Shown here piece by piece: positions 1,517-53,245 of a DNA stretch of 53,460 bases (its first letter is position 1; the number at the start of each line of letters is the position of its first letter). Source of the stretch: Acidobacteriota bacterium (lineage in GTDB: Bacteria; Actinomycetota; Acidimicrobiia; Spongiisociales; UBA5794); the NCBI GenBank assembly GCA_022566415.1, contig JADFIY010000001.1:1-53460 (forward strand). The letters run 5' to 3'. Both the position numbers and the translations under genes were made by a program. The notes beneath the pieces are model-generated. The model ran no database searches and was not told where the DNA came from. It was given only the letters and a program-made list of their open reading frames with translations.

Positions 1517-1569
1517 TTCCCGGTTCCCAGTTCCCAGACTTGGGGCTTGCGACTTGCGGCTTGCAATTC
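1517..1569 (-). repeat. Phased heptamer array between the gyrA stop and the DUF3566 gene start
   Basis: Plus-strand reading is TTCCCGG TTCCCAG TTCCCAG ACTTGGG GCTTGCG ACTTGCG GCTTGCA, seven units in one register. In gene orientation this is (NCGCAAG)x4 then (CTGGGAA)x3, the same composite as 36358-36429. Confidence 0.75.
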
Positions 1570-3993
1570 TCAGTCTCCGTTCTTCGGCACCAAGGCAGCG
1601 GCCGACAACGTGGCGCCATCCTCCAGGTTCATCACCTTGACGCCGGTCGACTCTCGTTTCTGCCGACTGATGTCGCTGACCGCCTGCCGGATGACGATCC
1701 CATCGGATGAGATCATGAATACTTCGTCGTCAGCGGTGACGGCTCTGGCCGCGACCAGGCTCCCTCTCACCTTGGTCAGCTTCATCGCCTTGACTCCGAA
1801 CCCGCCTCGCCTCTGACGCCGGAAATGCTCCAAGTTGGTCCGTTTGGCGTATCCGCCTGAGGTCATCAGCAGGATCTCGCTTCCCTCTTCGGCTGTGGCG
1901 GCGGCGACGACCTCGTCGCCTTCCCTCAGTTTGATCCCCCTCACCCCTTGGGAGGCCCGACCCATCGGGCGAGCGTCCTTCTCCGAGAATCGGATCCCCT
2001 TACCGCTCTTGGTGAACATGAGCAAGTCGTCCTCGCCACTCGTTGCTCTGACGGCAACGACCTCATCGTCGTCTTGGAGCTTGATCGCCACCAAGACTTG
2101 GTTCCTCGAGTCGTAGTCGGTGAACTTGGATTTCTTTACTTGCCCCTTCTTGGTGAACATCACCAAATGACGATGCGTCTCGTAGTCGCGGGTGTCGATC
2201 ACTGCTTCGATGACTTCGTCGCCATCCATCGGAAGGACCGATTGGATCAGCACTCCCTTGGCATTCCTGTCCTTGCGCGGGATCTCATGTGCTCGGACCC
2301 GATACACCTTCCCGCGGTTCGTGAAGAAGAGGAGGTAGGCATGGGCTGACGTGTGCAGCACGTGTTCGACGACGTCGTCCTCACGCAACGCCGCCCCGCG
2401 GATCCCGCGTCCACCCCTCCCCTGCGTCCGATACGTCGTGGCGAGGACCGACTTGACGTAGCCCGCTGCGGATACGGTCACCACGAGCTCTTCGTCTGCA
2501 ATCAGATCCTCCAGGGAAGCCTCCCCGGTGTCCGGGATGATCCGGCTCCTGCGGGCATCCCCGAACTTGTCGCGGATAGCGTTGAGCTCCTCGCCGATCA
2601 GCGCCCGACGTTTCTCCTCGCTCCCGAGTAGAGCCTTCAGCTCGGTGATGAGTCCCTGAAGCTGCTCGTGCTCTTCGCGCAGCTTGCCTGTTTCCAGCGC
2701 AGTGAGGCGACGCAGTGGCATGTCGAGGATGTGTGCTGCCTGGATTTCGCTGAACTCGAAGCGCTCCCTCAGGGCCGCTTTGGCCGCGCCTACGTCCTCG
2801 GAAGCCTTGATGATCTCGATCACCTCATCGATGTGATCGAGAGCGATCAGCAGCCCTTCGACGATGTGGGAACGTGCTTCGTTTTGCGCTAGGCGGAAGC
2901 GGCTGCGTCGTTCGATCACCTCCAGCTGATGATCGACGTAGTAATGAACCAGTTCGCTGAGGTTCAGCGTCCTTGGCACAGAATCGACGAGGGCGACCTG
3001 GTTGACCGAAAAGTTCTCCTCGAGCTGTGTTCCCTTGAATAGCTGGTTGAGTACGACCTGCGGATTCGCGTCCTTCTTCAACTCGAACACCAGCCGGGTC
3101 CCGTCGCGATCGGATTCGTCGCGAAGATCGGAGATCCCGGTGATCGTCTTCTTTCTCACCAGCTCGGCGGTCTTCTCCATGATGCGATCACGCGACACCT
3201 GATACGGGATCTCGGTGGCGACGATCGCTGTGCGGTTTCGTTTCGTTTCGACAACGTCGGTCACCGCTCGCATCTTCACCGAGCCGCGGCCGGTCGCCAG
3301 CGCGTCCTTTACCCCGTTGACACCGACGATGTAGGCGCCGGTGGGAAAGTCGGGGCCCTTGACGAACTCGGCCAGATCGTCGACGGTGGCGTCCGAATGG
3401 TCGAGCGCGTAGAGGATTGCGTCGACGACCTCGGTCAGGTTGTGCGGGGGGATGTTGGTGGCCATACCGACGGCGATGCCGGTCGAACCGTTGACGAGGA
3501 GGTTGGGGAACCGGGCCGGCATCACCACCGGTTCGTCACGCTCCCCTGAGTAGTTTGGGGTCCAGTCCACTGTGTCTTCGCCGATGCCCTCCAACAAGTG
3601 GGCAGCGAGTGGAGCCATCCTCGCCTCGGTGTAACGCATCGCAGCCGGCGGGTCATCAACGGTGCCGAAGTTCCCCTGCGGATCGATGAGCGGGTAGCGC
3701 ATCGAGAAGTCCTGAGCGAGCCGGACCATGGCGTCATACACCGCTTCCGGCGAGTGTGGGTGGTACCAACCGACGACGTCACCTATCACCCGCGCCGACT
3801 TGCGGTACGGAGTGCCGGATCGGATCCCCGCGTCATGCATCGCATACAGGATTCTGCGATGCACCGGCTTCAACCCATCGCGCACGTCGGGAAGCGCCCG
3901 GGACACGATCACCGACATCGCGTATTCGAGGAACGAGTCCTCCATCTCGCGTGTGATGTCGATCTGGGAAACTTGTGGTCTATCGGTCATCAT
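1570..3993 (-). CDS. gyrA: DNA gyrase subunit A
   Basis: 807 aa. The N-terminus [35 protein letters not shown] and the C-terminal beta-pinwheel repeats fit GyrA. It lies immediately downstream of gyrB. Confidence 0.98.
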
Positions 3994-3998
3994 CGCGT

Positions 3999-5924
3999 CT
4001 AGAAATCGAGGAACCGCACGTCGGCGGCGTTTTGCAGGATAAAGCGCCGCCTGGCATCCACGTCGGTGCCCATCAACGTGGTAAAGGCCTCTTCGGCGCG
4101 GAGCTGGTCATCGAGATCGACGCGAAGCAACACCCTGACTGCCGGGTCCATCGTCGTGGCCCACAGCTGATCGGCGTTCATCTCGCCAAGGCCCTTGAAG
4201 CGTTGAATGTTCATTTTCTTACCCTCGTTCTGAGCCTTGATTTCCTCGAGCTCGGCGTCGTTTTTGACCCATACGGTCTTGGTCCCGATCTTGATCGAGA
4301 ACAGAGGCGGCTGGGCAATGTAGATGTAACCGGCCTCGATGACCTCGGTCATGTGTCTATAGAAGAACGTCAGCAGCAACGTCCGGATATGTGCCCCATC
4401 GACGTCGGCGTCGGTGAGAATGATGATCTTGTGATACCTGGCCTTCGCGATGTCCAACTCGTCACCGATACCGGTGCCGATACCGGTGATCAACGACTGA
4501 ATCTCGTTGTTCTGCAGGACCCTGGCAAGCCTGTTCTTCTCGACATTGATGATCTTGCCCCGAATTGGCAGGATCGCCTGGTACTCGCTGTCCCTAGCCT
4601 GCTTGGCCGATCCACCCGCCGAGTCTCCCTCGACGATGAACAACTCGGTCACCGCCGCGTCGCGCGACGCGCAATCCGATAGCTTGCCTGGCAGACCACC
4701 GGACTCGAGCAGACTCTTCCGCCGCGTCAGATCTCGCGCCTGGCGTGCCGCCAACCTCGCCTTCGCCGCCTGGGTGCTCTTCTCGACGATGCGCCGCCCA
4801 TCCCCAGGGTGTCGTTCCAGCCACTCTGGAATCGCCTGGTTGAGCGCCTTCTCGACAAACGAGCGGATTTCGGTGTTTCCCAGCTTGGTCTTGGTCTGCC
4901 CTTCGAATTGCGGTTGGCGCACCTTCACCGATATGACCGCAGTGAGCCCCTCGCGCACGTCCTCACCGGTCAGGTTGTCGTCCTTTTCCTTGAGCAAGCC
5001 CTTGTTCCGCGCCATATCGTTTATGGCTCTCGTCAGCGCCTTGCGAAAACCCTCTTCGTGTGTCCCGCCCTCGTGAGTGTTGATGTTGTTGGCGAAACTG
5101 AGGATGGTCTCGTGGTATCCAGACGTCCACTGCATCGCCACCTCGAGTTCCCCATCGACGGAGCTCTCCTCGAAGTAGGCGACCTGTTTGTGGATTGGAT
5201 CACGGTTGGCGTTGAGGTGCTGTACGAAGTCGACGATCCCTCCGCTGTATCGAAAGACCTCCTCGACCGGCTCCGGCCCGCGTTCGTCGCGAAAGCGCAT
5301 CTCCAGGCCCTTGTTGAGGAAGGCCATCTCTCGGAGCCGATTCACCACGGTTTTCGCGTCGTAGTCGACGCCATCGGTGAAAATCTCGGGGTCAGCCCAA
5401 TACACCACCTGGGTGCCGGTTTGTTTGGCTTCTTTCCCTTTCTTCACCGATCCAACCGGGTCGCCGTACTCATACGCCTGCGACCAACGGAACCCGTCTC
5501 TGACCACATCGACCTCGAGGCGCGAGGCGAGCGCGTTGACTACCGATACGCCGACCCCGTGCAGCCCGCCGGACACGGTGTAGGCCCCCGACTCGAATTT
5601 GCCGCCGGCGTGGAGGGTCGTCATCACCGTGTCCAGTGCCGACTCCTTGGTTTTCGGGTGTTTTGCGACAGGGATGCCTCGCCCGTTGTCACGGACCCTG
5701 ACCCCACCGTCGGCAAGCAGCGACACCTCGATCCGCGTGCCATAGCCAGCCATTGCCTCGTCGACCGAGTTGTCGACAACCTCCCATATCAGGTGGTGGA
5801 GACCCTTTGGCCCAGTCGACCCTATGTACATCGCAGGCCGTCGCTTGACCGCTTCCAGACCCTCGAGGACTTTGATGTCCTTGGCGTCGTAGGACGCGTT
5901 CACGTCGCGTTTGGGGTGGGTCAC
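3999..5924 (-). CDS. gyrB: DNA gyrase subunit B
   Basis: 641 aa with [17 protein letters not shown], a GHKL ATPase region and Toprim (EGDSAGG). There is a 5-nt gap to gyrA. Confidence 0.98.
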
Positions 5925-53198: not shown

Positions 53199-53199
53199 G

Positions 53200-53220
53200 G
53201 GAGTCGCCTGCGGCGACTCC
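53200..53220 (+). terminator. Perfect 9-bp stem / 3-nt loop hairpin 2 nt after the acyl-CoA ligase stop (no U-tract)
   Basis: GGAGTCGCC tgc GGCGACTCC. Confidence 0.45.
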
Positions 53221-53245
53221 GTGTTACGTATTACGAGTCGGACCT

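Follow-up and report, generated by a model that had tools for sequence, protein, structure and literature searches.

Short tandem repeats of seven nucleotides are a published class of bacterial sequence, and they are the closest described counterpart of the arrays considered here, which lie in the spacers of a 53,460-nucleotide stretch from an uncultured acidimicrobial genome (GenBank assembly GCA_022566415.1, contig JADFIY010000001.1, positions 1 to 53,460 of the forward strand; "the window" below means this whole stretch). As summarised in PMC4679880 and PMC4692102, the survey of Mrazek (2007) found heptanucleotides to be the commonest class of long simple sequence repeats in most genomes; they were mainly intergenic and enriched in large high-G+C genomes of non-pathogens, with Actinobacteria among the richest, and polymerase slippage was suggested as their source. 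Rehm (2015) described arrays of GGGAATC in Xanthomonas and of GGGGA(C/T)T, the cyanobacterial STRRs, in Nostoc, which lie less than 50 bp from stop codons or overlap them and often form inverted pairs (PMC4692102). About 70 convergent pairs per genome were able to form stem-loops, downstream of the stop the G-rich strand was the coding one, and related species had arrays in the same intergenic positions, with varying length and sequence; the authors found no functional link to any gene class and also argued against phase variation (PMC4692102). In marine Beggiatoaceae, cyanobacteria and Bacteroidetes, TAACTGA arrays lie just upstream of start codons (MacGregor 2015; PMC4679880), and a preprint on Nostoc recF/recO reports promoter-proximal heptamers with regulatory effects; both works postulate an unidentified repeat-binding protein. 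The initial annotation of the window held that no described bacterial feature combined such a period with anchoring at stop codons and dispersed shared motifs, a statement that these publications on heptanucleotide repeats near stops contradict (PMC4692102, PMC4679880). In the nearly two decades since such repeats were noticed, no function has been accepted for them.

It appears somewhat probable that the arrays of the window are simple-sequence-repeat arrays, with a unit of 7 nt and at one locus of 8 nt, which are made by slippage and kept in the 3′ flanks of genes, some of them as 3′-end hairpins. Array detection was performed with Tandem Repeats Finder (TRF), and the chance level was estimated by windowed autocorrelation against dinucleotide shuffles. 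Strong sliding windows numbered four at period 7 and two at period 8, compared with 0.04 and 0.01 in the shuffles, which bears out the earlier claim that the arrays are non-random. Nine spacers had been named as carrying arrays, and TRF recovered period-7 or period-8 arrays at eight of them; the ninth site (53223-53236), with two ACGT-core units only, is the weakest. The period-7 arrays occupy positions 1517-1537, 1539-1564, 21973-22019, 25237-25278, 29313-29336, 34683-34702, 36356-36373, 36381-36424 and 44683-44705, and the period-8 array positions 42881-42954, with 2.6-6.3 copies per array. All 12 period-7 and period-8 arrays lie wholly outside genes (P ~3e-8 for nine independent loci) in a window whose non-coding share is 14.6%; arrays of period 6, 9 and 12 sit within genes, as expected. 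The dispersed sharing of motifs also held, with AGTCGCA-type units at five loci, CTGGGAA at two and ACGTNNN at two. The proposal that the register is kept across motif changes was dropped, as no phase is defined between unrelated units. CRISPR arrays, in which repeats of 25-40 nt alternate with unique spacers of similar length, were excluded, the units being contiguous 7-8-mers without spacers.

The placement of the arrays relative to genes is uneven. Seven of the nine begin 0-25 nt past the stop codon of a gene, on its sense strand, so that the anchoring at stop codons proposed in the initial annotation holds for these and fails for the arrays at 21963-22025, in a divergent promoter region, and at 29313-29336, upstream of a RidA-like gene. 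At three loci the stop codon lies inside the first unit: the TGA of rnhA (25236-25238) reads TGA-GTCGGAA..., the TAG of uppS (36355-36357) TAG-TCGCAAG... and the TAG of the DUF192 gene (42881-42883) TAG-CGAAA.... The onset is 3-5 nt past the stop for gyrA, rplI and the minus-strand open reading frame (ORF) ending at 34714, and 25 nt past the stop, after a small hairpin, for an AMP-binding gene. Three of the spacers are long (99, 180 and 243 nt), and the joint chance that their arrays begin within 5 nt of the stop is ~2e-4.

A search with ribosomal protein L9 grouped the window with uncultured Acidimicrobiia represented by metagenome-assembled genomes (MAGs). The L9 proteins of L001, L002, L003 and L006, MAGs assembled independently of the window, are 99%, 95%, 86% and 82% identical to that of the window, and the nucleotide identity to L001 is ~96.5%. 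Two array pairs of the window can be followed in these relatives. Past rplI, the left arm (44637..44664, plus strand; AGTCATC AGTGCTC AGTCTTC AGCCTTG) begins 5 nt after the TGA, and the right arm (44683..44706, plus strand) reads CTGACGA CTGATGA CTGACGA CT. Together they are predicted to form a long imperfect hairpin with periodic arms and six paired bases per heptamer (z = -2.7). Past the DUF192 gene, the left arm (42881..42923, plus strand) is TAGCGAAA TAGCGAAG TAGCCCAG TAGCCCAG TAGCGAAG, in which the first TAG is the stop of the gene, and the right arm (42927..42958, plus strand) comprises 3.5 copies of ACTGATCT. This pair folds into a long imperfect hairpin in which 6-bp helices, six paired bases per octamer, are split by 2-nt internal loops (z = -2.5); a conserved rpsF promoter-like box and leader follow the right arm. 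Convergent pairs able to form stem-loops were found at these two loci of the window and also in L001, L003, L006 and the gammaproteobacterial locus L034.

The hairpins stand where more distant relatives have ordinary ones. Past rplI, L007-L011 and L013 possess a canonical stem, GGGCCCGTC-loop-GACGGGCCC, with a T-run behind it, and L015 a different G+C hairpin; past the DUF192 gene, L007-L011 possess ordinary stem-loops. The rplI and DUF192 array pairs are thus positionally equivalent to the terminator-like hairpins of these genomes. The left rplI arm is shared by L001, L003 and L006, and its AGTCTTC units are retained in L003 and L006; the right arm is CTGTTGA x4 in L006 and CGACTGA x5 in L003, and both versions still pair with the left arm. 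In the window, a consensus scan gave 17 canonical terminators, which is no enrichment over the 11.6 +/- 3.4 of shuffled sequence, and placed none at these gene ends.

The comparison with related genomes called for in the initial annotation revealed homologous arrays with differing units at the same three orthologous spacers in the window, L001, L002, L003 and L006. At the DUF192 locus, the period of 8 is kept in L001, L003 and L006 with altered motifs. The persistence of arrays at these three spacers extends over species with an L9 identity of only 82-99%. Arrays also differ between close strains. The segment L001 1-135, compared with window 37148-37267, carries (TCGCAAG)4 and ACGTCAC units pairing with GCTTGCG...TTGTGAC (z = -5.5), where the sequence of the window is unrelated. 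L001 2170-2287, corresponding to window 39252-40645, lacks the M20/M25/M40 peptidase gene and has instead a 118-nt segment, which is a heptamer-array hairpin (CAAGTAA CCAGTAC CAAGGAA ... TACTTGG TACTTGG). The AP-endonuclease-like gene upstream has its final codons and its stop altered by this segment, the first unit of which supplies the TAA stop.

A single AGT core with a fixed orientation is common to the units. Next to the stop, on the sense strand, units read NAGTNNN (AGTCGCA, AGTAGCG and AGTCATC/AGTCTTC, and AGTTCCC for a convergent phosphatase gene), and distal arrays read NNNACTN (GGGAACT, CGACTGA, ACTGATCT), the near-complement. A scan of metagenome contigs for (TCGCAAG)3 returned more than 120 contigs of 34-70% G+C. 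The polarity was counted on 117 non-redundant metagenome arrays of at least three TCGCAAG units, taking same-strand ORFs of at least 100 aa that end within 10 nt upstream. The sense placement was found for 30 of the 117 arrays, 18 of which had the ORF end within 3 nt, and the antisense placement for three; ~2.7 were expected at random (P = 1.4e-6). The stop was in register with the first unit, as T|AAGTCGC, T|GAGTCGC or T|AGTCGC. A complementary partner within 150 nt, whose duplex energy was -20 kcal/mol or better, was located downstream of 25 of 95 metagenome arrays and upstream of four (P = 1e-4).

The same contigs carry many further heptamer arrays. Of those whose distance from the selected array exceeds 500 nt, 112 in all, 22% differ from AAGTCGC by at most one mismatch, compared with 1.8% expected. 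Separate filtering gave 109 independent arrays for these contigs; 26 of them abut a stop, with the AGT orientation in 12 and the ACT orientation in three (P = 0.035). On viral contigs, the TCGCAAG motif showed no excess, with two matches against three and two for two permuted controls. Similar arrays are present in isolate genomes of other phyla. In the gammaproteobacterium Exilibacterium (L034), (TAGTCAC)4(TAGTGAC)4 starts in the TAG stop of dnaB and forms a near-perfect hairpin (z = -9.0). The arrangement of NAGTNNN at the stop and NNNACTN on the distal side has thus been met in Acidimicrobiia, in one gammaproteobacterium and in metagenome contigs of 34-70% GC. AAGUCGC and GUCACAC resemble both strands of the 16S rRNA decoding-site helix, which we take to be a probable coincidence of short words.

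The remaining arrays of the window are more varied. On its sense strand, the gyrA array (1517..1565, minus strand) consists of the TGA, 5 nt, the units GCAAGCC GCAAGTC GCAAGCC CCAAGTC and then TGGGAAC TGGGAAC CGGGAAT, and it lies 48 nt upstream of the start of the DUF3566 gene. The rnhA array (25237..25278, plus strand; six copies of GAGTCGC/GAGTAGC heptamers) occupies the entire 40-nt spacer from the TGA of rnhA to the ATG (25279) of the CCA-adding enzyme gene. The GGTAGCT-type heptamers at 34683..34710 (minus strand, about three copies) follow the TGA at 34714-34716 and lie between a 151-aa minus-strand ORF and an HlyIII-family gene. This ORF (34714-35169) had no Pfam match, and its codon-position GC pattern resembles that of a real gene. 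The uppS array (36356..36373, plus strand) has 2.6 AGTCGCA copies, with the first unit overlapping the TAG at 36355-36357; L002 and L003 have orthologues of this array, and L006 has none. Adjacent to it, 6.3 copies of CTGGGAA/GGGAACT in the plus-strand reading (36381..36424) represent AGTTCCC units on the minus strand, with the onset 9 nt past the stop (36434-36436) of a convergent histidine-phosphatase gene. Past the AMP-binding gene, the element at 53201..53236 (plus strand) comprises the hairpin GGAGTCGCC-TGC-GGCGACTCC directly after the stop and then GTTACGT ATTACGA; the L003 orthologue has the same hairpin and at least three heptamers.

Two arrays have no gene end beside them. The ACGT-core heptamers at 21963..22025 (plus strand; ACGTATC ACGTTCC ACGTATC ACGTATC ACGAACG ACGTACC GCGTAAT ACGTGGA) are flanked by a GNAT gene (minus) and a deacetylase gene (plus) that diverge from each other, and they extend to the likely ATG at 22033. 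The AGTCGCA heptamers at 29313..29336 (plus strand, 3.4 copies) precede the RidA/L-PSP-like gene (29356-29739) by 20 nt. A region of ~660 nt (28694-29355) between cupredoxin-like and RidA-like genes, in which no convincing ORF or Pfam match was found, ends in the latter array. Scans with Rfam and for tRNAs, judged by the gathering score of each family, detected no known RNA family at any array; the sole match in the window was tRNA-Gly at 49951-50022.

In the explanation that we tend to favour, units would be gained, lost and replaced by slipped-strand mispairing, as the literature on such repeats suggests, and arrays would last only where no reading frame is broken, neither 7 nor 8 being divisible by 3. 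AGT-core units at the stop together with distal near-complements give a long imperfect hairpin wherever the variable positions also match. As RNA hairpins at the 3′ end, paired arrays may serve in termination, in 3′-end protection or in both, presumably in a niche like that of REP elements, and a periodic arm would allow a stem that has gained or lost a unit to pair again with its register shifted. The unpaired arrays (gyrA, rnhA, uppS, 29313 and 21963) may be the same material not currently in a hairpin, or may have another role.

A number of points weigh against this explanation. The gyrA array is less structured than its shuffles (RNA fold z = +1.3) and the fold of the uppS array is unremarkable (z = -0.2). 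The rnhA array reaches the next start codon, which would be an odd site for a terminator in an apparent operon. Stems were found at two loci with no T-run behind them, so that these are hairpins without a U-tract, and a strong partner is missing for ~74% of the metagenome arrays, as it is for most arrays. The gain and loss of arrays between ~96.5%-identical strains fits weak selection or none, and the polarity of the AGT core is not accounted for by slippage alone. The metagenome set was chosen by one motif, and the ORF-based gene calls behind the polarity counts are crude. Because the permuted-motif control covered viral contigs only, the motif can be called unusually common only with respect to its recurrence within contigs. 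Any role of the arrays at the RNA level is purely what we infer.

Among the other explanations, there is a real, though lesser, chance that the arrays are neutral by-products of slippage without function, purged from coding sequence by selection against frameshifts and brought to abut stop codons by a deletion bias. The turnover of motif and length at orthologous sites, the strain differences just mentioned with an array at a deletion junction, the many unstructured arrays and the failure to find a function for such repeats in the literature (PMC4692102) all suit this explanation. Slippage and deletion bias, however, predict no strand preference, and the observed ratios are 30:3 for sense against antisense placement and 25:4 for downstream against upstream partners; nor do they readily explain why few motif families recur, at 22% against 1.8% for independent arrays close to AAGTCGC, or why arrays persist at three spacers across the species compared. 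On a broader reading, arrays with the AGT core would not be generic microsatellites but a cis-element with strand polarity, widespread in the 3′ flanks of bacterial genes and acting either as a self-renewing, register-tolerant terminator or 3′-end hairpin, or as the landing pad of a conserved periodic machine binding RNA or single-stranded DNA (ssDNA); we consider this general proposition rather doubtful. A narrower proposal, which seems unlikely, is a periodic platform for an oligomeric protein binding single-stranded RNA or DNA, whose subunits would read the AGU(C) core with ~4 variable nt between. HutP, which reads UAG triplets spaced 7 nt apart, and TRAP offer a likeness for such a protein. 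A conserved core of 3-4 nt with the other positions variable across loci and genomes, the strand polarity and the lack of structure in gyrA-type arrays are in agreement with it, as is the repeat-binding protein postulated by MacGregor (2015; PMC4679880) and in the Nostoc recF/recO preprint. Against it, the protein is purely hypothetical and has no named candidate, the binder would have to be nearly universal, given genomes of 34-70% GC from at least two phyla, and the complementary core of the distal arrays fits base-pairing better than the recognition of one strand.

Other functions fit single arrays. Of all the arrays, a single one has a canonical G-quadruplex motif, at 36383-36406 on the plus strand (GGGAACCGGGAACTGGGGACTGGG), which has four G3 tracts and loops of 3-4 nt, and could form a G-quadruplex; GGGAACT is also close to the GGGAATC of Xanthomonas, where the G-rich strand is the coding strand past the stop (Rehm 2015; PMC4692102). 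Nevertheless, it is very unlikely that the heptamers act generally through quadruplexes in DNA or RNA, like GGGAATC or GGGGA(C/T)T, since a single array reaches four G tracts, the gyrA copy has three, and the AGTCGCA, ACGTATC, AGTCTTC and octamer arrays have none. The initial annotation had suggested that the arrays place stop codons in all three frames after the gene, as a backstop for ribosomes that read through or shift frame. This proved true of the DUF192 and rplI arrays, two of the nine sites, and every unit of the Exilibacterium TAGTCAC array contains TAG. It is no general explanation and is less probable still, because the commonest units (AGTCGCA, CTGGGAA, ACGTATC) are stop-free in every frame: no frame of the gyrA array is interrupted by a stop over its 53 nt, the same holds for the 29314 array and for the stretch 53199-53236, and the uppS array has a stop in one frame only and the rnhA array in two. 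Phase variation, with the number of units switching neighbouring genes, would recall the heptanucleotide promoter repeats that reportedly drive hmw1A switching in Haemophilus, and two arrays (21963-22025 and 29313-29336) do lie in 5′ regions; most of the others, on the contrary, are 3′ of housekeeping genes (gyrA, rnhA, uppS, rplI), the neighbours have no link to surface or virulence genes, and Rehm (2015) came to the same negative conclusion (PMC4692102), so that such contingency loci seem extremely improbable. There is hardly any likelihood that the arrays are artefacts of assembly or polishing, because the independently assembled relatives carry homologous arrays at the same spacers, and similar arrays are seen in isolate genomes. 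Two candidates were discarded. Rho loading (rut) sites, with YC every 7 nt in an unstructured stretch where the ribosome has just been released, were rejected as a general explanation, the units being neither C-rich nor G-poor and GGGAACT having no YC; the elemental RNA-polymerase pause consensus was dropped as it fits AAGTCGC only.

The window has 63% G+C and contains an actinobacterial origin-proximal gene set, with dnaA, dnaN, recF, gyrB, gyrA and the DUF3566 gene on the minus strand and rpsF, ssb, rpsR, rplI and dnaB on the plus strand. Another dispersed repeat of ~100 bp is present in 12 copies, all intergenic and mostly in tandem clusters of 2-3, at 13153, 16527-16646 (minus strand), 24325-24596, 42251-42368, 46347-46616 and 53310. 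The core of the family, GGGCCACGGCTCCGCAAA ... TTTGCGGAGCG-CATTTTTCC, is an internal hairpin with a T-run after it. This repeat looks REP- or MITE-like, was scored as terminator-like by the consensus scan and inflates the apparent rnhA and DUF192 ORFs. Downstream of the EamA transporter gene, the gene at 47616-48968 encodes a YheO-like PAS domain and an adenylate/guanylate cyclase domain.

The spacers of the rpsF to dnaB region contain conserved sequences of other kinds. Past rplI (window 44707-44875, L001-L017), the blocks CCGTCGCGAAAACA and CGCGTT(C/T)(G/C)TGTCA(C/T)ACCC upstream of dnaB are conserved among genomes with L9 only 66-99% identical; they may represent a leader or operator and had no Rfam match. 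Upstream of rpsF (window 42960-43063 and the spacers of L001-L023), a conserved TACACT box is followed by a CCTGTCCC...GGGAC hairpin and then by GTCCAGAGGAG, probably a promoter and an rpsF (S6/S18-type) leader, which scored below the Rfam gathering score. The spacer between rpsF and ssb (window 43406-43420; L001 4943-4963, L002 9214-9234, L009 and L011) has a conserved GAGAAGA/GAGAGAA purine repeat, which is probably the ssb ribosome-binding region and not a member of the array family. Within dnaB, L001 6963-7283 diverges completely from the window from 45420 onward; possible causes are an intein, an insertion and a contig end that is chimeric. Long perfect heptamer arrays also occur near rplI-dnaB in Pseudomonas citronellolis, P. 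jinjuensis, P. delhiensis and P. nitroreducens: GCCTTCA x6.6 and x13 in L042 (12039-12084) and L044 (12023-12116), ~10 nt upstream of the ATG following dnaB, and GCCTGCA x5 and GCTTGCA x10 in L043 (8193-8229) and L052 (8151-8223), ~1.8 kb upstream of rplI.

Annotation is affected as well, since stop codons can be created or overlapped by the arrays and ORF callers misled; in the window, arrays are crossed by several long ORFs that are spurious. If the hairpin or terminator reading were true, it would explain how gene ends are marked in genomes poor in canonical terminators and how such signals may be rapidly remade by slippage. If the AGT core were a general cis-element, the AGT/ACT polarity would be a functional signature unrecognised in the published descriptions. 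To these descriptions the window adds an AGT/ACT core with a fixed polarity to the stop, array pairs in the terminator slot of relatives, and gain and loss between near-identical strains, including an array at a deletion junction.

As to known systems, the array pairs are similar to intrinsic terminators in having a stem-loop directly past the stop, in the same slot as the stems of L007-L011 and L013 after rplI; unlike terminators, their stems are long, imperfect and periodic, without a U-tract, and most arrays are not hairpins. REP and BIME elements are dispersed non-coding hairpin repeats of 3′ flanks, often a few nucleotides from stops, which are thought to stabilise the upstream mRNA or to modulate termination. 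REPs, however, are single imperfect palindromes of 20-40 nt linked to RAYT transposases, whereas the units of the window are tandem 7- or 8-mers of several motifs, and Pfam scans of 30 ORFs, a part of those in the window, detected no transposase-like gene; sequence similarity to REPs was not seen either. The TAACTGA repeats (PMC4679880) are, like the window arrays, intergenic heptamers (2-6 units) in a fixed orientation to genes; their ACTGA core resembles distal units of the window type (CGACTGA, TGACTGA, ACTGATCT), and their position on the start-codon side matches the distal, ACT-type side. There, however, one motif dominates the genome and a translational role at the ribosome-binding site has been proposed, whereas the window has several motifs that are mainly stop-proximal.

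The closest resemblance is to the heptanucleotide repeats proper. With the LSSR(5-11) of Mrazek, Guo and Shah (2007), long simple sequence repeats whose units measure 5-11 nt, the window arrays share tandem head-to-tail units, 7 nt being the commonest, a mostly intergenic location with tandem iteration beyond chance, and unit variation between close relatives; that work is a statistical survey, whose summaries contain no AGT-core family, stop polarity or Acidimicrobiia. The repeats of Rehm (2015; PMC4692102) agree with those of the window in their heptamers (there between 2 and over 20 per array), bias towards non-coding DNA, proximity to stops, convergent stem-loop pairs and lack of a link to gene function, and the GGGAACT of one window array is nearly the GGGAATC of Xanthomonas. 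They differ in that the window units are mostly not G-rich and form no G-quadruplex, four or more G3 tracts being found at 36383-36406 only, and in that one locus has an 8-nt unit, the lineage is acidimicrobial and relatives have terminator-like hairpins at the array sites. Within the literature library that was searched, the AGTCGCA-array string gave no match. The arrays belong to the published class of heptanucleotide repeats, and what is new is the lineage that carries them, the uncultured Acidimicrobiia.

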